DNA from: Candidatus Thorarchaeota archaeon
GTDB taxonomy: Archaea > Asgardarchaeota > Thorarchaeia > Thorarchaeales > Thorarchaeaceae
Length of the DNA: 32,000 nt
NCBI GenBank assembly: GCA_008080745.1
Contig: SHMX01000003.1
Location: 150,001-182,000, forward strand
Direction: 5' to 3'
The translations under genes were made by a program, and so were the position numbers. Positions 10,384-31,854 of the stretch are shown here, piece by piece (position 1 is the stretch's first letter; every line of letters starts with the position of its first letter). Under the pieces are notes generated by a model that was given only the letters and a program-made list of their open reading frames with translations, had not been told where the DNA came from and ran no database searches.

Positions 10384-12171
10384 CTATTCTAGCTCAGATT
10401 TTTTGGTTTCTATAATGTTGATAATTTCAGATTCTATTGTTTCAAGAGATTCTCTTGCAACCTTTACCTTTTCAGGTGTTGTTGGACGTTCACCAACATT
10501 AAGTACGTCGTCTTCAGCGATGCCTTCTATAGTAGATCTAAGATCTCTCAAACGAGAAATCGCCTGATCAAGGGATGTTCGAATCTTTGTTCTAAGAGCC
10601 GCTAATTCTGGGTCTGTAGTTGCCGCAGCGGTAGGAACTTGTTTATGAATTTCCTCAAGAGTGCTGACGAGGTCTCCTGCCTTAGATTTGGCACCTAAAA
10701 TTTTTTCAGTCAAGCTCTTTTTCTGCTCAGCCCGAGCGTCCCATGTTCTTAATGACTCAGCAATCATACCATCAAGACTAATCTGAACCTGTGCAATTGA
10801 TTCGCTAACTTTTTCTTTCAGTGGAAGAATATTAGAAAGAGCAAACTTCTTCTTTGAGGTTTCTCTAGCAAGAGTGAGTTTATCACTCAATGCTTCGTCA
10901 CCTACAATCTCATCCATGAGGTCGACCGTTTCATTGACTACCTTTATTCGAGCTTTGCCGTGTTCAATCTCGGAAGATTCTATTTCAGTTCTAGCTCTCT
11001 GAAGAATGTTTTGAAGACCAGATATAATTCGAATAAGAGGTTCTTTCTCTAAATCAGATTCATCAACCGAGCTTGACAGCAGTCCTACCCGTCCCCCGGT
11101 TACATCGAGATCATGGAGAAGCTTTTCAGATTCTTTGAAGTCTTTCAGGATGAGTGTCCCTGGACCCGCTTGAAGAGAGTATTCAGTCTTAAGCTTGTCC
11201 TGATAGGATCCTCTCACCATCACTGAATATTCTTTAATACCTTCAAGTTCTTCTGCTGCCTTCACAATAATTTCCATTTCCATTACTTCACCTGAGGGAA
11301 GAACAGGCATGGTCTTATTACGTTCACCGGAAACAATCGCCAGACCCTCGTCCAATTCCCAAGATGCCTTTGGTGAAAGGGCTTCACCCTCACCAGTATT
11401 CTTGATAATCACTCTAAGTGGAAATTGTTCAGAAAACGTCATATCAACAGGCAAGTCCAATGTGGCGGAAATTTTAGGGACTTTTAATTTTCCACGCAGA
11501 ATTTGTCGAACCATGTCAAGCCCTTTATCCACATATTTCACAAAGTCTTGTGCTTTTGCGTTTGCTAGAGCTGCCTTTAGTTCGGTTACTGCAGCAGTTT
11601 CTGCTGCTGCAAAAGCCTCTAAATCTACAGATTGTAGAGCACTTTCAAGCATCTGTGGAATCTGACTAAGCCTTATTACATCAGGGAATCTCAGTTTTGA
11701 TGCATTTTCAGCTGCAAATGTTCGTGCCTTATAGAAGGCATCAGCCTCTTTTCCAATCATCAGATAAATCATACTTGACAAGACTGCTAATGCAGTTCCT
11801 TTTGCAGTTTCAGAGTCCTCGCCCCACATCAAGTATTCACCCGATGCATTCATCAGATCTTCAGCAGCAATTTCGTAAGCTTTGATAGCTTTATCAGATT
11901 CAGCTGTTTCTGAATAAACGTCACCGGCCATACACATGTTCAAGGCCGCATTCTTGAAGCTCTTCGATTCTCGATATCGGGAAGCTGCCTTTTCATAGGC
12001 TTCAGCAGCTTGTTTAAACACTTTAGTTGCTTCATCATAATCACCTTTCTGTTCGAGTAATTCAGCGGCTTCTTCGAATTTTCGACCAGCTGCGGTGAAT
12101 GATTCTCGTAACGACTCATTGGTGGCTTCTTCTATGATTCGTCTTGTTTCCTCATCGGACATGGTTAACAA
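10384..12171 (-). CDS. SNAP/TPR-like alpha-solenoid, Ig-like (CARDB-type) domain and C-terminal helical/coiled-coil region
   Basis: AGRKFEEAAELL...YDEATKVFKQAAEAYEKAA...KAIKAYEIAA helical repeats; LRVIIKNTGEGEA...LPSGE beta-sandwich; heptad-rich C-terminus. Confidence 0.65.
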   Translation of the reverse strand: MLTMSDEETRRIIEEATNESLRESFTAAGRKFEEAAELLEQKGDYDEATKVFKQAAEAYEKAASRYRESKSFKNAALNMCMAGDVYSETAESDKAIKAYEIAAEDLMNASGEYLMWGEDSETAKGTALAVLSSMIYLMIGKEADAFYKARTFAAENASKLRFPDVIRLSQIPQMLESALQSVDLEAFAAAETAAVTELKAALANAKAQDFVKYVDKGLDMVRQILRGKLKVPKISATLDLPVDMTFSEQFPLRVIIKNTGEGEALSPKASWELDEGLAIVSGERNKTMPVLPSGEVMEMEIIVKAAEELEGIKEYSVMVRGSYQDKLKTEYSLQAGPGTLILKDFKESEKLLHDLDVTGGRVGLLSSSVDESDLEKEPLIRIISGLQNILQRARTEIESSEIEHGKARIKVVNETVDLMDEIVGDEALSDKLTLARETSKKKFALSNILPLKEKVSESIAQVQISLDGMIAESLRTWDARAEQKKSLTEKILGAKSKAGDLVSTLEEIHKQVPTAAATTDPELAALRTKIRTSLDQAISRLRDLRSTIEGIAEDDVLNVGERPTTPEKVKVARESLETIESEIINIIETKKSELE

Positions 12172-21152: not shown

Positions 21153-22073
21153 ATGGCAACTTGTTCACTTTGTGGGGCAGAAGATCTATGCTTCACCTGT
21201 CCATATTGTAGATCAGTTTATTGCGCAGAGCATAGACTTCCAGAAAGTCATGGCTGTCCGGCGCTGCAACTTGCCAAAGAAGATGCTCGACGAAAAATTG
21301 CCCAGAGTTTCAGCGGAGATTATTATGAGGAAGAGGAATCTGGACAGAGTAGATTTCGGAGGAAACAAAAGAAGTCCCGGTCATCTTGGAAAAAGAAATA
21401 CAAGTTCTCTCAAACCGAAGTCAGAGATCTGACCATTGCAACTATTCTTGTTGCACTCGTTGGATTGGCCCTAATGGCACCATTCAGGGGAATTATTGTT
21501 GCAATTTCCAACCTTATTTTCTACATTCAAATAGGATTTGGATGGTATCCAATTGCAATGATTGGAATTTTTGTTGGATCATTTCTACTCCATGAGCTTG
21601 CACATAAGTTCACTGCCCAGAGATATGGTATGTGGAGTGAATTTCGGATGCTTCCAACAGGATATTTCATCTCTATTTTCTCCATATTAGCTTCAATCCC
21701 CATTGTGGGAACAGGTGTGGTGTTGTCCAGCGGAGCAGGGTCTCAGGAGGAAGATGCAAAAACTAATCTGGCAGGGCCTATGTCCAATTTCATATTGGCT
21801 TTGATTCTGATAGGGGTAATCGTCATATTTCGATTGATAACTGGAGGACCTTTAGCTGAGATTGGAACTATAGGAATAGTAGTATTGTATCTTGTACAAT
21901 ATGGTGTGATATTAAACGCATTTTTGGGTCTCTTCAATATGATTCCATTCCAACCATTTGATGGTGCTACGGTAATGGCATGGGATAAAAGAGTGTGGGC
22001 TGCATTAACCATCAGTTTACTGATAATTTTGATTATGGGATACATTGTAATTCCTATGTTTCTAACTGTGTAA
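21153..22073 (+). CDS. AN1-type zinc finger fused to an M50 (site-2 protease family) membrane metalloprotease
   Basis: CSLC...CPYC...YCAEHRLPESHGC (AN1); LLHELAHK (HExxH), NLAGPMSN, FNMIPFQPFDG (NxxPxxxxDG). Confidence 0.88.
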   Translation: MATCSLCGAEDLCFTCPYCRSVYCAEHRLPESHGCPALQLAKEDARRKIAQSFSGDYYEEEESGQSRFRRKQKKSRSSWKKKYKFSQTEVRDLTIATILVALVGLALMAPFRGIIVAISNLIFYIQIGFGWYPIAMIGIFVGSFLLHELAHKFTAQRYGMWSEFRMLPTGYFISIFSILASIPIVGTGVVLSSGAGSQEEDAKTNLAGPMSNFILALILIGVIVIFRLITGGPLAEIGTIGIVVLYLVQYGVILNAFLGLFNMIPFQPFDGATVMAWDKRVWAALTISLLIILIMGYIVIPMFLTV

Positions 22074-22145: not shown

Positions 22146-23675
22146 TTGCAAACTGTCAAACCAATCGAAACCGATGTAGTCGAACTTTCAGTTTCAGCCT
22201 GGTTTTATCGGAATCGAACCATAGCAGGCTTTGACAATCCAGCCCGATCACTTTATGTATCGATCCGTGAATTAGTTGAGAATAGTCTTGACGCAAGTGA
22301 AGATGCAGGCTATCTTCCAGAAGTCAAGGTAACACTATCACGCATCTCTGAACGGTCAGATTTGGGAGATTTATTCTCAGCAGGTCCTGAAGAATTCAAA
22401 CTCAGAGTCGAGGATAACGGCGGTGGAATTCCAAGATCAAAAGTCCCCAAATTAATAGGAAAGATGCTTACAGGTACAAAATTCATGCTTAGACAAAATC
22501 GTGGAACCTTCGGTTTGGGAGGAAGTCTTGCCCTACTCTATGGACAAGTTACTACTCAAAAACCCATCAAGATATGTACAGCTATACCAGGAGAGAATCT
22601 TAGACATGAATTGATTATGCGGCTAGATATTGAACAGAATACTCCTAAAATAATTAGAGAAAATTCAATTCGAAAAGATCCTGATGATCACGGTACAATT
22701 GTTGAATTCGCACTACAGGGAGATTGGATTAGAAGCAAGACACGGATAGCAGATTACTTCACGCAAACGAGTATTATTGTTCCTTATGCGAGTATTATTT
22801 TTAGCAATCCAGATGGAGAAACTCTCACCTATAAAAGACTAATAGAAACATTACCGCGAAGACCAAAAGACATGAAGCCGCATCCAGAAGGTATCGATGT
22901 TGAGATGCTCAAACAAATGATTCGAAAGACCAAGAAAAACACTCTCAGTAAATTCTTTATGAAAGCATTTCAGAGGGTGGGGACTACAACCGCCCAAGCG
23001 TTTCTCGATTATGCGGAATTGGATCCAGATATTCCACCCAAGACCTTGAAGCGTGAAGAATTAGTAGCCCTGATGAATGCAATGGCTTCATACGATAAAT
23101 TTCTACCACCCTCTCCAAAATCACTATCACCTGCAGGAGAGGCGGTATTAGAAGCAGGTCTCAAGAGGTTAGAACCAGAGTTTGTAGCAGTGAGTACACG
23201 TTCGCCAAGTGTTTATGAAGGGCACCCATTCATTATCGAAACTGCGGTGGCATACGGAGGTGGTCTTCAACCAGGTATCAATCTGTTGCGTTTCGCAAAT
23301 AGAATTCCGCTCCTTTATGATGAGAGATCAGATGTATCAAGTAGAGTAATCAGAGACCTCCGATTGAAGAATTATGAATTGAAACAGGAAGATCCCTTAG
23401 TCTTTCTTACCCATATCTGCTCAACCAAAGTACCCTATAAGACAGTAGGGAAAGAATTCATTGGAGATGTTGATGCAGTCCGACGAGAAGTCGATCTAGG
23501 ATTCAAAGAATGCTTAAGGAGAGTATCTGAAGGAGTTCGTAAAAAGAATCGAGCAAAGAGAAAGGCAAGACGAGAAAATAAGCTGCAGACCTATTACGAA
23601 TTTCTCACTGACACACTATCTGCCGCTACTGGTCGGCAAATCAGTTCGTCAATTCTTTTTGGAGATGAGAGGTGA
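22146..23675 (+). CDS. top6B: DNA topoisomerase VI subunit B
   Basis: GFDNPARSLY...RELVENSLDA, VEDNGGGI, RGTFGLGG, DDHGT (GHKL motifs); PHPEG.D, RFANRIPLLYD, KVPYKTVGKE transducer; overlaps the next gene. Confidence 0.93.
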   Translation: MQTVKPIETDVVELSVSAWFYRNRTIAGFDNPARSLYVSIRELVENSLDASEDAGYLPEVKVTLSRISERSDLGDLFSAGPEEFKLRVEDNGGGIPRSKVPKLIGKMLTGTKFMLRQNRGTFGLGGSLALLYGQVTTQKPIKICTAIPGENLRHELIMRLDIEQNTPKIIRENSIRKDPDDHGTIVEFALQGDWIRSKTRIADYFTQTSIIVPYASIIFSNPDGETLTYKRLIETLPRRPKDMKPHPEGIDVEMLKQMIRKTKKNTLSKFFMKAFQRVGTTTAQAFLDYAELDPDIPPKTLKREELVALMNAMASYDKFLPPSPKSLSPAGEAVLEAGLKRLEPEFVAVSTRSPSVYEGHPFIIETAVAYGGGLQPGINLLRFANRIPLLYDERSDVSSRVIRDLRLKNYELKQEDPLVFLTHICSTKVPYKTVGKEFIGDVDAVRREVDLGFKECLRRVSEGVRKKNRAKRKARRENKLQTYYEFLTDTLSAATGRQISSSILFGDER

Positions 23676-24831
23676 TATCAGGATGAATGAACGAATGCAA
23701 GATATGACCAATTCGGAAGTAATCGAACTTATTGATAATGTCATTTTTACCATAGCAGATACTATTCAAGATGGTATGTTTCCCGAGATTGGTTATTATG
23801 GTTCATCAAAAAAGAATGTAGAATACATACCTGAATCAGGATATACCCCCATTGACGAAAAACCATCATTTCTTGATGGACGAAAGGTCAAGAGTGCAAA
23901 AACCATTGCAAGTCTGGTATATGGACTTACTCGATTCAAAGAGCATCTTGATCAAGGACTATCCATGAGTCTGAGAGATTTCTATTATATGCACAAGGTG
24001 AAGGAAGTTCAAAATATCCTAAAAATAGATAGTCAGAATGAAACCAATCGCTTAATCAATTTGTGTGAACGAATTCTCCGTCTTCAGGGTTCTTCGATAC
24101 CCCGTGAAGAGTTTGGAGTAGTCAGTTCTCCCAAAGGCACTTTCTATGGTGATGTCACTCTAACTGACCTATCTGGTAAAAAGCTCAGATGCGATTATGC
24201 AGGAGAGTATGGATGGTTCATATCATCAAGGCCGTTTGAGGTGAAGATTCATCAGCTCAATATCGATGCCGCAATATTTGTAGAAAAGGAAGCTATGGCC
24301 CGCAACTTGATTGAATTAGGAATTCCAGAAGAAATGAACATCGGGGTTGGTGCCTTATTTGGTCAACCAGGAAGGAATATGAGAGCATGGATAAAACGTC
24401 TTTCAGATAATGAAGTGCCCATTCTAGTGCTTGTTGATATGTCACCATGGTCATTAAGAATTTTCTCAACTATAAAGAGTAATTCTATTGAATTAGCGAA
24501 TATTCAAGGACTTGCTGCTCCAGATACGAAACTGTTAGGTCTCACTACTGATGATTTCTGGTCATCAGATGGTATTCTAAAAGATATTGAGCATACACTC
24601 GAAGATATGTCAAAGTCTGACATAAGGTGTGCAAAACAGAATCAGAATATTCCAGCAATCAATAAAGATCCTATTCTAAAGAGAGAGAATGATATGCTCC
24701 TGAGAAAGAAACGTAAAGGAGAACTTGAGGCTTTCAAAGCTATTGGTCTACCAATATCAGAGCTAAAAACCACGTACATGGAGTATATCATATCAAAAGC
24801 CCGAAAGTATGATATTAAGTTGGGACAGTAG
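23659..24831 (+). CDS. top6A: DNA topoisomerase VI subunit A / Spo11-family protein with a non-canonical TOPRIM motif
   Basis: SLRDFYY (catalytic Tyr), SQNETNRLI, FVEKEAM, LFGQP, VDMSPWS at the canonical DxDPxG position, KGELEAF. True start may be one of the downstream ATGs (23683, 23695). Confidence 0.85.
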   Translation: MEMRGDIRMNERMQDMTNSEVIELIDNVIFTIADTIQDGMFPEIGYYGSSKKNVEYIPESGYTPIDEKPSFLDGRKVKSAKTIASLVYGLTRFKEHLDQGLSMSLRDFYYMHKVKEVQNILKIDSQNETNRLINLCERILRLQGSSIPREEFGVVSSPKGTFYGDVTLTDLSGKKLRCDYAGEYGWFISSRPFEVKIHQLNIDAAIFVEKEAMARNLIELGIPEEMNIGVGALFGQPGRNMRAWIKRLSDNEVPILVLVDMSPWSLRIFSTIKSNSIELANIQGLAAPDTKLLGLTTDDFWSSDGILKDIEHTLEDMSKSDIRCAKQNQNIPAINKDPILKRENDMLLRKKRKGELEAFKAIGLPISELKTTYMEYIISKARKYDIKLGQ

Positions 24832-24892
24832 TTGCATCTTTAGAAAACTGATTTAAGACGAGAAGCTTCTTGAAGATATGAGGAGTGGTATT

Positions 24893-25570
24893 GTGTCACT
24901 TGATAAAGAGAATATGTTGGAACTGTTCGAGAATTTCAAAGCTGCCATCGTTAAACTCATGGAGGAGCGTGACAAGCTCGCCACCGAAGCAGACGAAATT
25001 CGAGGAGCAAGACGTGAAGCTGAAGAAAAGGCTTGGCAAATAGAGGAAGACCTCAAAGAGGCTAAGACCGAGCTCATAGAGAAGGAAAAGGTGATTAGAA
25101 CCACCGAGGCGGAGAAAGTTGCTGCCGAGGCAAAGATTGACGAACTCACGAAAGAGATTGAGGATCTAAAATCAGATACTTCTAAAGAGGACCAATTAGC
25201 AAAGGTTACAGCTGAACGTGACGAGCTCAAAAAAGAGATGGACGAAATCACAAGTAAATTAGAGCGAGTTTCAGAACTCTATCGTGAAACAACTGCAGAA
25301 AAAGAGAAACTTGCAGAGAAGGTAGATGTGAGTGATTTGCTTGGAATCTATATCACCTTGATTGAAACGGTATTTGGTGGAAAACCACATGCAAGAGTGC
25401 TTTATACTTTACATAACACTCAGACAGCGATTCCAAGAAAGAACCTAGAGAAGAGTACAGGCATCATGCCAACAGCTATATTGAAGGCAATTCATGACCT
25501 CCGTAACGCGGGCCTTGTCGATTACGATGAGGAAAGTCAAGAGGTAAAGCTCCTAAAAGATATCCTTTAG
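24893..25570 (+). CDS. Long coiled-coil protein with C-terminal winged-helix domain
   Basis: About 135 aa of E/K-rich heptads, then VFGGKPHARVLYTLH...RKNLEKSTG...ILKAIHDLRNAGLVDYD (wHTH pattern). GTG at 24893 follows GAGGAG (alternative ATG at 24878). Confidence 0.75.
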   Translation: MSLDKENMLELFENFKAAIVKLMEERDKLATEADEIRGARREAEEKAWQIEEDLKEAKTELIEKEKVIRTTEAEKVAAEAKIDELTKEIEDLKSDTSKEDQLAKVTAERDELKKEMDEITSKLERVSELYRETTAEKEKLAEKVDVSDLLGIYITLIETVFGGKPHARVLYTLHNTQTAIPRKNLEKSTGIMPTAILKAIHDLRNAGLVDYDEESQEVKLLKDIL

Positions 25571-25617
25571 AAAGGCTTCCTTAAATTAACCAGTATTAAT
25601 TACCGAGATGTCGTACT

Positions 25618-26619
25618 TTGCCAAAGAAAGTAAAATATTCAGCAGCTCTCAGAAAATACTTGAAGAGATACAATCTGTTTAGAAAAGTAGATAGTATTGT
25701 ATCTATATTGGGCGATGATGCTCAACAAGTCTTTGATTGGGCACAGGAAGAAGCTCAGAGACGGATTGATGAACAAAAAGAAAAGAAATCAAACAAAGGC
25801 CGTTTGATATTTCGACTAGTGGGACGAGAAGCTGCAATTAGACTAGTCCAAGAAAATCACGCAAGAGGTAGGTTGACCACTAAAAGCGAGGTTAAAAAGA
25901 AAACTGGACAGAAGATGGAGATGCCACTTCTCTATCAACAGGCTGGAGTACGTCATCCACAGGAAGCCAGAAATCTAAGACACAACCTGTTTCATAAAGC
26001 ATTTCTTGCTCTGGCACACCACCTTTTTGGTGACATTGAAACACGAATTCCACAAACTGGAGAAGGACTAACACCTGATTTGGTAATTACTCACAAAGAT
26101 CCTGATTGGGAGATTTCAGTTGAGTATAAAGGATACCGAGCTCTAACCCTTCTGAGCGAGTCAGAAATATTGAAAGGGATACGTTATCAGGCTGCTTATG
26201 GAACCTCTTGGCTTGTAACTACCACTCAGAAGACAGTTAGAGACCTCTATAATGAAACATTAACCGTGAAGGAGTTGGTTCGAAATGGTATCCCTCGATT
26301 GAAAACCATTAGTCGACGACGTGCTTATACTGAGGAACAGAAGGAAAATCGAGGAATCTCGATGAAGGGTATCAAACACCTGGAGAAAAATAAGGATTTA
26401 GGCCTGAAATGCAAGTTAATTTCAGCTCAAGATTTACTCAAGTCATGCCATGAAGGTCAACCACTCAGAGGACTAGCTATTACCACTGGTATGGAATTTA
26501 TTGAGATGTTGAAAGAAGCAGGTTTGCATGAGCACGCAGAGAATGTTTTACAGGTAATGAAAGTACCAACCTATGCATTACATAGCGATAGTGTCACTTC
26601 AGTTCGCTTGATTGGTTGA
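25618..26619 (+). CDS. PD-(D/E)xK nuclease-fold protein with a basic N-terminal helical/HTH region
   Basis: LTPDLVI...ISVEYKG (PD...ExK); N-terminal RGRLTTKSEVKKKTG...LYQQAGV resembles HTH modules seen on archaeal endonucleases. Confidence 0.6.
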   Translation: MPKKVKYSAALRKYLKRYNLFRKVDSIVSILGDDAQQVFDWAQEEAQRRIDEQKEKKSNKGRLIFRLVGREAAIRLVQENHARGRLTTKSEVKKKTGQKMEMPLLYQQAGVRHPQEARNLRHNLFHKAFLALAHHLFGDIETRIPQTGEGLTPDLVITHKDPDWEISVEYKGYRALTLLSESEILKGIRYQAAYGTSWLVTTTQKTVRDLYNETLTVKELVRNGIPRLKTISRRRAYTEEQKENRGISMKGIKHLEKNKDLGLKCKLISAQDLLKSCHEGQPLRGLAITTGMEFIEMLKEAGLHEHAENVLQVMKVPTYALHSDSVTSVRLIG

Positions 26620-26718
26620 TATAATGGGGGAAAAAAAGGAGCTCTACCAAGATTTATTTGCGCAAATGATTCAGTAATATTGAGAATATGGACTCACTGT
26701 ATTCATGAAGGTGCTCAA

Positions 26719-27111
26719 TTGACAAGTTCAGCCTCTATCAATATTCCCGAACTACTGAAAGAACTATTGCGAGATTTGTCAAATAACTCGCCGATACTGG
26801 GAGCTGCAATTCTATCTCAAGAAGGTCTCCCTCTGGAGAGTCATTTCCATCGAGGATTAGAGGAGGCCACTATTGCTGCAATGGTAGCAGGCATATATTC
26901 CACCGGGGAACAAACGGTCAGAGAACTAAGACAGGGTAACTTGAGGAATATCATCATAGAAGGAGATATGGGTACTACAATTGTTTTATCGATCCCAGGC
27001 GGATATCTTCTCTGTGTTACAGCACCAGAAAACGCCAAACTTGGTCTAATTTTTAATGATGCAAAACGAGTAGCTAGAGAAGCCTCCAGACTAATCCAAC
27101 GATATGAGTGA
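26719..27111 (+). CDS. Roadblock/LC7 (MglB-like) protein
   Basis: ILGAAILSQEGLPL...EATIAAMVAGIYSTGEQTVREL..G.L..IIIEGDMG...LGLIF..AK; TTG at 26719 follows GAAGGTG. Confidence 0.92.
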   Translation: MTSSASINIPELLKELLRDLSNNSPILGAAILSQEGLPLESHFHRGLEEATIAAMVAGIYSTGEQTVRELRQGNLRNIIIEGDMGTTIVLSIPGGYLLCVTAPENAKLGLIFNDAKRVAREASRLIQRYE

Positions 27112-27943
27112 GAAAATGAGTGCAAACGAAAGGTATCCCTATATTCATCATCCTTGTTGGTCCCAAATAGATAGTTGGGAAAGAATTCATCTTCCAGTAG
27201 CAAGAAAATGTAATGTCAAATGTATATATTGTGATCATCTACTTGAGAGTGCGTGTCATTCTGGTTCTAGACCAGGTCGTAGTAGACAGGTGATGAAGCC
27301 TGAGGAAGCCATCGAAAGGTGTCTTTCTGAGTTGAGTAAACGAAAAAATCTAAGAATTGTAGCAGTTTCTGGACCCGGGGAGCCGCTAGCAAATAAAGAA
27401 ACATTTGAAACTCTTTGGCGAATTCGACAAATGAAATCAGATATCAAAATCTGCCTAAGTACGAATGGTACGCTTCTTAGCTCAAATATACAAAAACTGG
27501 AAGAACTGAATATTGAAACAATCTCTGTTACTGTGTCTTCTACAAATTTAGAAACAATAGAACAGTTGTATCAGTGGATGCTTATCGATGAGAAACGGGT
27601 AAGTGGTGCCGGAATGGCCTCGATTATTCTTAGATCTCAAATAAAGGGAATTGCAGAGGCGAGCAATGTTGGAATTTTTATCAAGGTAAACACGGTTCTG
27701 ATTCCTGGGCTAAATGATAGAGATATAATAGATCTAGCAAAGCAAATACATAACGCAGGTGCGAAAATTCACAATATCGTACCATTGATACCCCATTCAG
27801 ATGCCAAGAAGTATCGAGTACCCACTCAAAAAGAGATTGAAGATGCAAGAGCAAAATCAAATTCATTCATACCGCAATTTACACATTGCAGGCAATGCAG
27901 AAGTGATGTAGTGGGAATTCCCGGTCAAGATACAATCCTCTAA
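27104..27943 (+). CDS. Stand-alone NifB-like radical SAM protein with no NifX domain
   Basis: HPC, RIHLPVA, CNVKCIYC, SRPG, VSGPGEPLAN, ICLSTNG, KVNTVLIPG.ND, HCRQCRSDVVG; overlaps the roadblock stop by 8 nt. Confidence 0.85.
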   Translation: MSEKMSANERYPYIHHPCWSQIDSWERIHLPVARKCNVKCIYCDHLLESACHSGSRPGRSRQVMKPEEAIERCLSELSKRKNLRIVAVSGPGEPLANKETFETLWRIRQMKSDIKICLSTNGTLLSSNIQKLEELNIETISVTVSSTNLETIEQLYQWMLIDEKRVSGAGMASIILRSQIKGIAEASNVGIFIKVNTVLIPGLNDRDIIDLAKQIHNAGAKIHNIVPLIPHSDAKKYRVPTQKEIEDARAKSNSFIPQFTHCRQCRSDVVGIPGQDTIL

Positions 27944-28779
27944 GCTAAGGATTTAATGCCAGCTAAACCAAGGCAACCCGAATCTACTAAGAGATTAATA
28001 AGAAACCATATGGCACTGGAATCATATGGGAGTCCTTGCATTATGTCTTGTATTCTTTGTGAGCCATCGGAACTTCGAATCAAATCTTCTACAGGTTGAC
28101 CATACTGTGCTTTTAACCTCTCAAGTACCATAGGTTCGCATTCCAACCGAATTAAAATATCGTTATCAGTGAGAGGCTTCTTGAAATGTATCCATTTGAA
28201 TTTTGCAAGAGCAGAAGCAACAGCCATCACCTCTCCATCAGTCAAGGCGATTCTATTGACAATCTCACCCAAAGAGCGTTTACCATTGATAAAATCCTCG
28301 AACTCCTCCATTTTCTGGTCAACATAACCAACACGGTAGGGAATCTGTTCACCTCTTCTTTTTAGAGGAACAAGTTCAAGGTCTATCTTATGATAAGGAA
28401 AGTGAACTAGAACGGAAAAACAAAACTCCCGAAATAAACGGACATCACCATCAAAATCAGCTAAAGCTTCTTGATATCCAGTTTCAAAATCTGATAGAAT
28501 TTGACGCAGATGTTTCCTATAGGGAGCTTCGTCAGGAACTGGATCGACAACCAGTAATATCAGAACTTTTTTACCAACCTCAATTAGAATATCATAAGCA
28601 GCTTTTCTAATTGTACGAATTGGTGTCTTTGCAAAGATAATAACAGCAGTTACAAATCCAGCTATCAAGTCAGGATCAACGGTCATGGTGGCATATGGCA
28701 GGCTGAGGATGGACTCACCACCTTCCAGTCGAATGATAGAAATATATCTGATTCTGGATACATCAACTGCCAAATGCAC
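27940..28779 (-). CDS. Longin-like domain plus two winged-helix-like repeats (NPRL2-like), paralogue B
   Basis: RYISIIRLEGGESI...VDPDLIAGFVTAVIIF...ILLVVD...YRKHLRQILSDFE (longin pattern); FINGKRSLGEI and SDGSQRIQDI repeats; AAGGAG RBS. Confidence 0.7.
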   Translation of the reverse strand: MHLAVDVSRIRYISIIRLEGGESILSLPYATMTVDPDLIAGFVTAVIIFAKTPIRTIRKAAYDILIEVGKKVLILLVVDPVPDEAPYRKHLRQILSDFETGYQEALADFDGDVRLFREFCFSVLVHFPYHKIDLELVPLKRRGEQIPYRVGYVDQKMEEFEDFINGKRSLGEIVNRIALTDGEVMAVASALAKFKWIHFKKPLTDNDILIRLECEPMVLERLKAQYGQPVEDLIRSSDGSQRIQDIMQGLPYDSSAIWFLINLLVDSGCLGLAGIKSLA

Positions 28780-28895
28780 ACATACTCCTTTTTGATTTGG
28801 AAAGAGAACTCCTATAGTATCTATTTGGAAGGCTGCTTATAATAATTCCATAAAAGAATATCCTACCCGTATATTCTCCTCGCATCGCCAACATA

Positions 28896-29759
28896 CTATT
28901 TCTTTGCCCCCATTCCTGAAGCATATCGAAGCACTCCATAGTCAATGAGTGTCTTCGCAACCACCATTACAACTTCCAAACTATATGGAAGCATCTCACT
29001 AACTTCACCCAGATTTCTAGTTCCGTCACATAATTCAACAAGATTTGATATCTGTTCACCATAAACAGCTATTAGAAAATCAGGAGCATTTGAGATCTTT
29101 ACAAGCTTGACAGAATCCGTAATTTTGGGAGAGAGTGTAACCCAATTATATCGATCTAATAGGGAAAATATAGCCATTACCTCTCTCTCAGACATTCCAG
29201 ATGCTTCAATGATTTCATTTATGGATCGCTTTCCATTGATGAAGTTTAATATCTTGTGAATCTTCTCATCGGTCTTTCCGACACTCCAGGGAATCTCAGA
29301 ACGATGATCTGGTGCCGCATCAGATTTGCTTACGAGTTTTGGTACTAAAGATGCCTCCAAGATACGATATGGAAAGGTTTCAAGAATCCCTAAGGCGAAC
29401 TCTCGGAAGGGTCTAATATCACCTTTCCAAGATTCTAAAAGTGATTCATACTCTTTTTCAAAACGATGTGTTAGTTTCTTTAGTGCCTTACGATACACCT
29501 CATCATTTTCTACACGGTCTATGATAAGCAGACTGACTACCTGTTCACCCTCCTCAATGATTACTACATAACCCTCTTTTGTAAAAGTTTTAAGTTGTCG
29601 ATTTTCAAAGATGATAATGGCGAGAACAAAGGATGCAACTAAATCGGGGTCTACACTCATCTCTCGATAAGGTATACCAATGATAGGTTCACCACCCTCT
29701 TTCCTGACGATTGAGATATAGCGTACCTTTTCTTCGTCTAGGTCTTCACGTATCATCAC
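28896..29759 (-). CDS. Longin-like domain plus two winged-helix-like repeats (NPRL2-like), paralogue A
   Basis: RYISIVRKEGGEPI...VDPDLVASFVLAIIIF...SLLIID...YRKALKKLTHRFE; FINGKRSINEI and CDGTRNLGEV repeats; collinear with 27940..28779. Confidence 0.72.
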   Translation of the reverse strand: MMIREDLDEEKVRYISIVRKEGGEPIIGIPYREMSVDPDLVASFVLAIIIFENRQLKTFTKEGYVVIIEEGEQVVSLLIIDRVENDEVYRKALKKLTHRFEKEYESLLESWKGDIRPFREFALGILETFPYRILEASLVPKLVSKSDAAPDHRSEIPWSVGKTDEKIHKILNFINGKRSINEIIEASGMSEREVMAIFSLLDRYNWVTLSPKITDSVKLVKISNAPDFLIAVYGEQISNLVELCDGTRNLGEVSEMLPYSLEVVMVVAKTLIDYGVLRYASGMGAKK

Positions 29760-29802: not shown

Positions 29803-30693
29803 TCATATAAATTCTGATAATCCCGTCTGGTTTATTACCCGAACCTCTGAGTCTCGGTCGATATGGTATCCAATAAGTCGTTTAGAATTGATATACGTGT
29901 ATGTGCCATCTAGAGAAAGAATAAGTAAAGGACCTTTTAATCCAACAACAGAGCCTAAAATCTGTGTCCCATTAATTGGTGATCCTCTTTTTAGAATTGG
30001 CTTTGGAAGACTATCAAGTTCGGGGATATTATAGAAGGATGAGAGATCTGCTAAGGAAGAATCTTCTGGTACAGGTAATCCAGCGAGCTTAGAGAATTCA
30101 GCAATCTTAGAATATGCTTCATCAATCGCTAACGGTGTGAGTAGATGTTTTGCTTTAGTAGAAGCTCTAACCGACTTGGTGATACCTCTCAACCGTCCAA
30201 GTTTAGATTCAATTTGTCGAGCTGCTTTACCTCCGCGTATCTTCTGTATTATAACAGCAAAATCTGCTCCTTGTTCAATCCATCTTGTTCTAACCCTTCT
30301 CAGAGAAGATACACCAACTTTGATAGCACCCGTTTTGAAGACAGCTGAATACACTGCATATTCAGTATTCTTGCATCGTTCCCAACGCTCTGGTTGAGCT
30401 TGACACACTCGACCATCACAACGAATACAGGCATCAATATAATCCATGGCTGAACAAGGTCCGCAGCGAATTTTTGACTTAGAGATGCTCTGTGAATCAG
30501 GACAAGGATTTAGTCGCATATCCCGGTCAAGATATCCTACACAAGTCTTTGGACCTCGGATAGTCCAAGCAATTCGCTGTCCTTTCTCAAGTTTTAGAAA
30601 ATACGGTTTCTGTTCTCCACTTGACCAGGTATGCAGTCCTCGTTCAAATTCACCCTCGGGGGTTTCTCGCCAGAGAATGTTGGAAACGTGCAT
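29803..30693 (-). CDS. DUF2797-family Cys-rich protein
   Basis: TCVGY...CP...CGPC...C..C...C...Y.VY.A...IKVGVS...RWIEQGA pattern recalled for DUF2797. Confidence 0.7.
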   Translation of the reverse strand: MHVSNILWRETPEGEFERGLHTWSSGEQKPYFLKLEKGQRIAWTIRGPKTCVGYLDRDMRLNPCPDSQSISKSKIRCGPCSAMDYIDACIRCDGRVCQAQPERWERCKNTEYAVYSAVFKTGAIKVGVSSLRRVRTRWIEQGADFAVIIQKIRGGKAARQIESKLGRLRGITKSVRASTKAKHLLTPLAIDEAYSKIAEFSKLAGLPVPEDSSLADLSSFYNIPELDSLPKPILKRGSPINGTQILGSVVGLKGPLLILSLDGTYTYINSKRLIGYHIDRDSEVRVINQTGLSEFI

Positions 30694-30702
30694 TCTCTAA
30701 CC

Positions 30703-31746
30703 TCAGAAGAAATGTCGACCAGTTCCCTGTCCCATCCATTTGACTCCAGCAATATTAAGATCAGCTCCGCAGTCAGGACATTTTCCTTCCTCATTGAGAT
30801 TATTCTTCTTCAAATAAACCGAATATCTCTCAATTGCCTTATAGCCACAGTTGGGACAATAGGTATTCTCATGATCGTCACCAGGGATATTCCCGGAATA
30901 GATGAATTCTAGACCAGCATCTTTTGCAATATTGATGTGGCGTCTGAGTGTTTCTGCATTGGTGCGAGGAATATTAGTCAGTTTGTATGTGGGAGAGAAT
31001 GCAGTGATGTGTAAAGGGGTTCGAGGTCCTAGATTATCTACTATCCAATTAGCAAGATGTTCAGTGTCTTCCTTGTGGTCACCCACCTGAGGAATTATCA
31101 GATTGGTTATTTCAATGAATATGCCTTCTTCTTTGAATTTCTTTAGAGCAGTAAAGATTGGTTTGACCTTAGGTACACCCATATACTCCTGATAAAACTC
31201 CTTGTTTCCACTTCCTTTGAAATCAACCGTTACTGCGTCAAGGTAAGGTGCAATGAACTCGATGGCTTCAGGGGTTTCATATCCATTTGTCACGAAGGTA
31301 TTATAGAGTTCATTCTCTTTTGCAATCTTTGCAGTATCATATGCAACCTCCATGAAAATAGTAGGTTCTGTGTAGGTGTAACTAATCCCATCACAATTAT
31401 TTCTGATAGCCATTTTTACTATCTCATCTGGAGTCATATCACGACCCGCAGGTTCTTCTCTTTGAGATGAATGATAGTTCAGGCAAAATTGACATCTAAA
31501 GTTGCATGATGAGGTGCTTATTGAGAAAGCACGAGAGCCAGGGGCGAAATGAAATAGAGGTTTCTTTTCGATTGGATCAGCGGCCATTCCATCTATTTTG
31601 CAATAGACTTTCGTATACAAGACACCATCTTTTAATGTTCGAACTCGACAAAAACCAGTTTCTCCCTCTTTAATTACGCATCTTCTTGCACAAAGGTCAC
31701 ATCGAACTCCATCCTTGAGTTTTGTATACAGCACCGCTTCTTTCAT
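30703..31746 (-). CDS. amrS: AmmeMemoRadiSam-system radical SAM enzyme (PflA-like)
   Basis: CDLCARRC...G.CRVR, DPIEKKPLFHFAPG, CNFRCQFC, ISYTYTEP, EITNLIIP, YCPNCG. Start set at MKEAVLY (31746); the ORF-track extension to 31833 looks non-coding. Confidence 0.9.
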   Translation of the reverse strand: MKEAVLYTKLKDGVRCDLCARRCVIKEGETGFCRVRTLKDGVLYTKVYCKIDGMAADPIEKKPLFHFAPGSRAFSISTSSCNFRCQFCLNYHSSQREEPAGRDMTPDEIVKMAIRNNCDGISYTYTEPTIFMEVAYDTAKIAKENELYNTFVTNGYETPEAIEFIAPYLDAVTVDFKGSGNKEFYQEYMGVPKVKPIFTALKKFKEEGIFIEITNLIIPQVGDHKEDTEHLANWIVDNLGPRTPLHITAFSPTYKLTNIPRTNAETLRRHINIAKDAGLEFIYSGNIPGDDHENTYCPNCGYKAIERYSVYLKKNNLNEEGKCPDCGADLNIAGVKWMGQGTGRHFF

Positions 31747-31854
31747 ATCAGATAGAGAACACAAAGGGTTTCTTATTCCTCTTGTGGTATAACAGCGACG
31801 TGAATATATGAAACCATTAAAAGGAAATAGCACTATTTACAAGTGGTCTGTCCC

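Follow-up and report, generated by a model that had tools for sequence, protein, structure and literature searches.

Tandem NPRL2-like genes in Thorarchaeia: a lineage-specific pair of longin and winged-helix paralogues with a predicted role in small-GTPase regulation

We analysed a 32,000-nt stretch of DNA (hereafter the window) from a Candidatus Thorarchaeota archaeon (assembly GCA_008080745.1, contig SHMX01000003.1, positions 150,001–182,000), which carries two adjacent, co-oriented genes whose products resemble the eukaryotic GTPase regulators NPRL2 and NPRL3. Gene A (28896–29759, minus strand) encodes 287 amino acids (aa), or probably 286 aa from the ATG at 29756; the database gene call likewise starts at this ATG, one codon downstream, and has 286 aa. 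It is followed, after a spacer of 116 bp (28780–28895, minus strand), by gene B (27940–28779, minus strand; 279 aa), an A paralogue with the same order of domains. Among relatives, the two genes overlap by 4 bp at one extreme and lie ∼130 bp apart at the other. In BLASTP, the two proteins aligned end to end over 278 residues (37% identity, 60% positives, E 2e-67), with the shared blocks RYISIxRxEGGE, VDPDLxAxFVxAxIIF, GDxRxFREF, FPY and LVP, and further blocks FINGKRSxxEI, EVMA, YG, DG and LPY. A and B are full-length paralogues, and the adjacency, orientation, coordinates and blocks described in an initial annotation of this DNA were all confirmed. Both genes are on contig C3 of the 3.16-Mb genome, which is 98% complete.

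The AlphaFold2 model of A (24 sequences in the alignment; predicted local distance difference test score (pLDDT) 85.5, predicted template modelling score (pTM) 0.79) consists of a β-β-α-β-β-β-α domain followed by two helix-helix-helix-hairpin units. The corresponding parts are a longin domain (residues ∼8–130), a linker with a β strand, and two winged helices (∼160–212 and ∼226–280). When the model was compared with 48,161 PDB representatives using VIA-align, residues 6–135 matched longin domains, with Sec22 (3egd_C; Z 13.5, 123 residues aligned, root-mean-square deviation (rmsd) 3.1) ahead of VAMP7 (Z 13.0) and of adaptin sigma/mu, Mon1–Ccz1 and a Lokiarchaeal longin (Z 10–12). Nearly the full length of A could be aligned with yeast Npr2 (8adl_S; Z 10.7, 235 residues) and with NPRL3 (8fw5_C; Z 10.1, 253 residues). 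Foldseek searches with the whole model gave the same picture: the best 13 matches in the PDB were all NPRL2, NPRL3 or Npr2 chains (E 7.5e-8 to 2e-5), with every single-domain longin ranked below them. In AlphaFold Swiss-Prot, the ten best matches were again all NPRL2, NPRL3 or Npr2 (E 2.1e-9 to 1.2e-5), from fly, fission yeast, human, cow, mouse, worm and budding yeast, and residues 11–279 of A aligned onto NPRL2 residues 6–325.

The preference extends to the winged helices. The C-terminal 155 residues of A, folded alone (pLDDT 80.5), matched human NPRL2 best (8fw5_B residues 168–328; Z 11.8, 141 of 155 residues aligned), followed by yeast Npr2 (8adl_S; Z 11.2, 141 aligned), and the six best Foldseek matches were NPRL2 or Npr2 chains (E 2e-4, TM-score by query 0.54–0.64). 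The winged helices of RRE/PqqD, ROK, IclR, MarR, AsnC and ArsR proteins covered only one of the two units (Z 5.5–8.6), so that the repeats clearly prefer NPRL2 to generic winged helices. The N-terminal domain of FAM91A1 (8jj9) also resembles the tandem winged-helix half of A (Z 9.1, 123 aligned), but it has no longin, superimposes with an rmsd of 6.4 Å and ranks under NPRL2 and Npr2. For B, the fold rests on the 37% identity to A and on an ESM Atlas model (pTM 0.70), which has a TM-score of 0.82 to a Thor cluster of the NPRL2-like family. In each of A and B, the models thus predict a longin domain and, C-terminal to it, two winged helices in tandem, in an NPRL2/NPRL3-like fold. The whole fold and the C-terminal tandem both prefer NPRL2/NPRL3 to every other solved or Swiss-Prot structure. 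The structural comparisons bear out the longin-like N terminus and paired winged-helix repeats that had been proposed for each protein, and none of the structural outcomes that would have refuted the initial annotation was observed.

Of 87 genomes of the class that were searched, 83 contain the NPRL2-like family. A full-length A orthologue is present in ∼68 of them (44–86% identity), and in ∼65 of these 68 the next gene on that strand is a B orthologue (36–45% identity to A); in the exceptions, A lies at a contig edge. The adjacency noted in the initial annotation therefore recurs in nearly all relatives. At all loci compared (18 genomes, 15 genera), the order was A then B, and in three genomes (L013, L022 and L023) A and B overlap or directly adjoin each other, an arrangement typical of subunits produced in equal amounts. 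The pair is part of a conserved block of nine genes, with Top6A, a coiled-coil gene, a gene for a 333-aa protein, a Roadblock gene and a NifB-like radical SAM gene on one strand, and B, A, DUF2797 and an AmmeMemoRadiSam radical SAM gene on the converging strand. Genomes of the sister family f2 have the block as in the Thorarchaeia genomes with the pair, and a single NPRL2-like gene at this site. A search of 251 genomes of the phylum recovered full-length pairs in family f1 only (58 of 59 genomes).

Maximum-likelihood trees recovered A and B as separate clades (support 100/99 and 100/98, respectively), with a dispersed third paralogue, C, as sister to B. Rooting with the GTPase-fused modules described below places the single genes of families f8 and f15 first, then the single gene of f2, then (A,(C,B)), the f2 copy being sister to A, B and C together (support 98/88). 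Given the single copy at the syntenic f2 site, these trees and the restriction of pairs to f1, the duplication is Thorarchaeia's own: it arose inside this lineage, after the split from the sister family. It parallels the duplication that gave NPRL2 and NPRL3 and is neither its source nor its ancestor. The suggestion that the pair is an archaeal prototype of NPRL2–NPRL3 is therefore not supported in the sense of an ancestor. A locus on contig C7 (L003:1492–3119, minus strand) holds the full-length paralogue C (264 aa) and, upstream of it in the same orientation, two short open reading frames (ORFs; 87 and 162 aa) in which only the N-terminal longin-like motifs are present. C and these ORFs may represent a second, degenerate or split paralogue cluster.

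The NPRL2-like module also occurs next to small GTPases. A 625-aa protein in the same genome (contig C4, L004:307–2181, plus strand) combines four parts. An N-terminal domain is followed by a GTPase of the Arf/Roc/Ras type (Pfam Arf E 1.8e-18; Gtr1_RagA 24.8 bits), and an acidic linker then leads to a complete NPRL2-like module. With hhalign, residues 27–271 of the A profile aligned onto residues 359–615 of this protein (probability 99%, E 9.2e-18). Reading frames of 633–682 aa with the same match are present in at least 25 genomes, including those of f2 and of g15, a genus discussed below. In family f8, an operon of five overlapping genes (genome G092, L031:3591–7358, minus strand) encodes proteins of 351 aa, 276 aa (N-domain and Arf-type GTPase), 180 aa, 303 aa (NPRL2-like) and 157 aa. 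The 276-aa protein, encoded two genes upstream of the NPRL2-like gene, resembles the first half of the 625-aa fusion, and its GTPase matches that of the fusion (E 1e-25; Pfam Arf 5.8e-16). The f8 operon corresponds to the Thor fusion protein in split form. The fusion and the operon are good genomic evidence that the NPRL2-like module works with a small GTPase, and they strengthen the GTPase link made in the initial annotation. They say nothing on which GTPase A and B serve; the candidates in the genome comprise 12 matches to the Gtr1_RagA hidden Markov model and 34 to the Arf model.

In our view, A and B are members of the Asgard NPRL2-like family that were duplicated in Thorarchaeia and that probably act, as a predicted longin-paired unit, as a platform for or regulator of a GTPase, more likely in a capacity other than that of a GTPase-activating protein (GAP). 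Each has the domain order and spatial arrangement of residues ∼6–328 of eukaryotic NPRL2, and of NPRL3. A tandem duplication in the Thorarchaeia lineage, after the sister family had split off, produced two copies that were both retained side by side under purifying selection. A and B would pair through their longin domains, as NPRL2–NPRL3 and other longin/roadblock regulators do, and the pair would serve as a binding platform for, or regulator of, one of the many Arf/Rag-like GTPases of the genome. Throughout the orthologues, the winged-helix half is acidic, with a net charge of −17 to 0 and a median isoelectric point of ∼4.8–4.9, and it may make protein–protein contacts rather than bind DNA. 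A prediction of the A+B complex, run without controls, scored 0.02 against a mark of 0.32 and weighs neither way.

Several observations weigh against this reading. The first is that sequence searches gave no significant link to the eukaryotic proteins. Pfam NPR2 (PF06218) and NPR3 (PF03666) matched nothing in the whole genome at E-values up to 10, and hmmscan of A or B returned neither. A full-length profile of the family found NPRL2 in the PDB at a non-significant E of 0.73; a C-terminal profile placed NPRL2 at the top of 177,635 PDB sequences, but at E 0.14, which is likewise non-significant. Pfam HTH_NPRL3 (PF24064) matched A, and A alone in the genome, below threshold (17.8 bits, E 2.9e-3, cut-off 27.2) and did not match B. 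In favour of the link, 11 of the 30 A orthologues do match this model, the best of them at E 9.6e-9. Other sub-threshold matches of A were to HTH_47 (E 3.7e-4) and NCBIfam PqqD (19.4 bits, cut-off 46), and for B neither Pfam nor NCBIfam gave anything useful. Pfam IML1 (PF12257), the model for DEPDC5/Iml1, found nothing in this 98%-complete genome. Among 284 profile matches in 1.84 billion representatives, we considered full-length matches of 375–509 aa as candidate eukaryotic NPRL2 proteins and rejected them, as they proved to be variant archaeal proteins that carry V4R or additional winged helices. The NPRL2 stretch that the initial annotation had quoted first was accurate, being identical in the HMMER output for PDB chain 6ces_N (residues 184–236). 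Since the sequence link is insignificant, it is structure and domain architecture, and not sequence statistics, that place the pair with the eukaryotic family. Even in the structural comparison, the global TM-scores of A to NPRL2 were low (0.34–0.38), which we attribute to domain orientation and to the eukaryotic insertions.

The loci add further counterweights. No GTPase gene is present in the window or beside the pair at any locus compared. Because the whole nine-gene block is conserved, the adjacency of A and B is weak evidence of a shared function. Moreover, the three genomes of genus g15 (96–99% complete) have B without an A orthologue. As the g15 gene falls within the B clade, A was lost secondarily in this genus, and B can therefore persist without A. 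This loss also speaks against the suggestion, made in the initial annotation, that the two proteins form an obligate heterodimer.

The last counterpoint concerns catalysis. In NPRL2, the arginine finger Arg78 is carried by a loop of the longin domain (PMC8534245). Neither protein has a conserved Arg or Lys in the hairpin between β4 and β5 (A, I-E-E-G-x-x; B, I-E-V-G-x-x): an Arg occurs in one of 30 A orthologues and in none of 21 B orthologues. We take this hairpin to be the equivalent of the Arg78 loop (…C-I-E-H-K-K-Y-S-R-N…), and it would then be three residues shorter in A and B. The short loops (IEEGEQV and IEVGKKV) that had been singled out in the initial annotation are thus both present and lack a conserved basic residue. 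Without the canonical finger, a scaffold, GEF-like (guanine nucleotide exchange factor) or effector-like role is more likely than that of an NPRL2-type GAP. Hairpins of the type I/F/V-E-R-G do occur in the f8 and f15 outgroup genes and in two close representatives, and the position varies elsewhere in the superfamily. We therefore rejected a hairpin arginine finger as a trait of the family, as I-E-R-G is confined to the subgroup nearest the f8 operon type. A second feature distinguishes the two paralogues. Eukaryotic longin GAPs have a GP motif before β2, which is present in NPRL2 and absent from NPRL3 (PMC12290439). The β1–β2 loop of A is R-x-E-G-G-E-P, invariant in 30 of 30 orthologues, and that of B is R-x-E-G-G-E-S, with never a Pro among 21 orthologues. 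The loops are thus asymmetric, Pro against Ser, with the caveat that G-G-E-P in A is not a strict G-P. B is further marked by an invariant, B-specific stretch after helix 1 of the sequence P-I-R-T-I-x-K.

As a bolder reading, less likely than not, we propose that A and B form a 1:1 longin heterodimer, which descends from a homodimer through a duplication separate from that in eukaryotes and regulates in trans an Arf/Rag-like GTPase without an arginine finger. Its mechanism could be that of a GEF, of a guanine nucleotide dissociation inhibitor or of a platform, and its target could be the GTPase fused to the sister module. It is rather unlikely that A and B serve different GTPases, each as a homodimer or paired with some further paralogue (C or the GTPase-fused module, for example), their tandem order being simply inherited. 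The persistence of B alone in g15 fits such an arrangement, as do the single copy in the sister family, which implies an ancestral homomer, the presence of other paralogues in the genome (C with the two short longin-only ORFs, the 625-aa fusion and others) and the synteny of the nine-gene block, which leaves the adjacency with no need of a special explanation. It is harder to reconcile with two copies that stand side by side in ∼65 of 68 genomes and at least 15 genera, overlapping or abutting in several, and with the fact that the known paralogous longin regulators (NPRL2–NPRL3, FLCN–FNIP, C9orf72–SMCR8 and Mon1–Ccz1) are heterodimers (PMC8534245, PMC8213707). The Pro/Ser asymmetry of the loops, akin to the GP motif found in NPRL2 and not in NPRL3 (PMC12290439), also weighs against this alternative.

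An improbable alternative is that A and B are ligand-sensing transcription regulators, with a longin/roadblock-like sensor and DNA-binding winged helices, and that their likeness to NPRL2/NPRL3 reflects no more than a shared ancient combination of domains. Pfam matches of A orthologues to HTH_47 (23 of 30), and also to HTH_27, HTH_24, TrmB, MarR and AsnC-type models, are in keeping with this idea, as are the single-domain structural matches to ROK, IclR, MarR, AsnC and ArsR proteins (Z 5.5–6.5), the relatives with V4R or extra winged helices and the automatic naming of relatives in the AlphaFold database as ‘ArsR family transcriptional regulator’. In the description by Liu et al. (bioRxiv 10.1101/2020.10.19.343400), NPRL2-like longins are also fused to two-component signalling domains. 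However, the whole tandem matches NPRL2 and Npr2 (Z 11.2–11.8 over 141 residues) far above any DNA-binding protein, the charge of the winged-helix halves (−17 to 0) does not suggest a DNA-binding surface, and the companions of the paralogous modules, in fusions or in an operon, are Arf-type GTPases and not DNA-related genes. Least probable of all is that an A–B dimer works as a genuine GAP on a Rag/Arf-like GTPase with a relocated catalytic residue, for example the Arg at the end of β1 (A Arg19, invariant in 30 orthologues; B Arg17, invariant in 21), which directly precedes the loop at the GP-motif position, a neighbour of the arginine finger in eukaryotic longin GAPs (PMC12290439), but which is not conserved across the wider superfamily. 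The lack of a conserved Arg or Lys in the β4–β5 hairpin also weighs against this idea.

We return to the reading that we favour, a predicted longin-paired GTPase platform or regulator, and compare it with known systems. The closest eukaryotic counterpart is NPRL2–NPRL3 (yeast Npr2–Npr3), the core of GATOR1/SEACIT and GAP for RagA/Gtr1, in which two paralogues likewise each consist of a longin domain and tandem winged helices; the conserved I-E at the end of β4 in A and B also recalls NPRL2. A and B are ∼100 residues shorter than NPRL2, without its last ∼50 residues and without the eukaryotic insertions. They further differ from NPRL2–NPRL3 in having no significant sequence similarity, no arginine finger, no DEPDC5/Iml1 and a duplication of their own. 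FLCN–FNIP, C9orf72–SMCR8, Mon1–Ccz1 and Fuzzy–Inturned resemble the proposed pair in that an N-terminal longin pairs with that of a paralogue to hold a GTPase, and their longin matches to A have Z 9–10.7. Their C-terminal parts are DENN domains or further longins and not tandem winged helices, and for the whole protein they rank under NPRL2/NPRL3. The f8 operon and the 625-aa fusion share the longin and double winged-helix module with A and B (the f8 relative is 28% identical), but their modules are tied to an Arf-type GTPase, whereas A and B are free-standing and their genes have no GTPase gene close by. At the hairpin position that is Glu in A and Val in B, the f8-type relatives carry Arg (I-E-R-G).

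The family as such is not new, as an Asgard NPRL2-like family has already been reported for most Thor metagenome-assembled genomes (Liu et al., bioRxiv 10.1101/2020.10.19.343400; Nature 2021). A and B have exactly the organisation of that family as outlined there, a longin domain with an NPRL2-type C-terminal domain, and also its distribution. The text of that paper is silent on two tandem Thorarchaeia paralogues, on the timing of the duplication and on a module fused to an Arf-type GTPase. The present analysis contributes counts of how widely the tandem is retained, a timing of the duplication from synteny and trees, the finding that g15 has lost A, the measured absence of the finger, the Pro/Ser asymmetry and the GTPase fusion and operon.

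The genes around the pair belong mostly to the conserved block. Directly upstream of A lies the DUF2797 gene (29803–30693, minus strand), a conserved neighbour, preceded by the gene for a radical SAM enzyme of the AmmeMemoRadiSam system (30703–31833, minus strand), the first in a co-oriented run of this radical SAM gene, DUF2797, A and B. At the g15 loci L028 and L029, A and the adjacent DUF2797 gene are gone together, with B and the remainder of the block kept; this joint absence reflects either a single deletion or a hint of a link between A and DUF2797. On the other side, the NifB-like radical SAM gene (27104–27943, plus strand; NifB model 224 bits, under the cut-off of 344 bits) converges on the pair, its end overlapping the end of B, and is absent from the f2 site. 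Its start is overlapped by 8 bp by the Roadblock/LC7 gene (26680–27111, plus strand), also convergent to the pair and a conserved neighbour in families f1 and f2. We considered and rejected a Ragulator/GATOR-like module formed with this Roadblock gene, which is on the opposite strand and inside a block that is conserved as a whole. Four A orthologues weakly match DUF742, the winged-helix component that accompanies Roadblock and a small GTPase in actinobacterial conservons; this hints that a winged helix of the A type is an old companion of GTPase/Roadblock systems.

Elsewhere on the plus strand (22146–26619), the window encodes Topo VI B and A, which mark it as archaeal, then a 230-aa coiled-coil protein that weakly matches SMC-related models and a 333-aa protein assigned to no family; the order of these four genes is kept across the class. 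The product of a gene at 21153–22073 (plus strand) joins an AN1-type zinc finger to a site-2 protease (peptidase M50) domain. On the minus strand (10384–12171), a 595-aa protein weakly matches SNAP (soluble NSF attachment protein; E 2.3e-5, 24.5 bits, just below the cut-off) and is possibly another eukaryote-like trafficking protein, going by this similarity.

Longin heterodimers such as GATOR1, folliculin, C9orf72–SMCR8 and Mon1–Ccz1 control GTPases of eukaryotic nutrient signalling and membrane traffic, and their origin is sought in Asgard archaea. The pair described here leaves that picture unchanged, since the family is on record for Thorarchaeota and the duplication is specific to the lineage. 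Its two proteins of ∼280 residues offer a compact system for studying dimerisation, the GTPase partner and a role without an arginine finger. The fusion to an Arf-type GTPase and the operon name concrete candidate partners, and the loss of A in one genus provides a built-in comparison. If A and B do form a heterodimer without an arginine finger, they would be a small, soluble prokaryotic model for the origin and working of NPRL2–NPRL3-type regulators.

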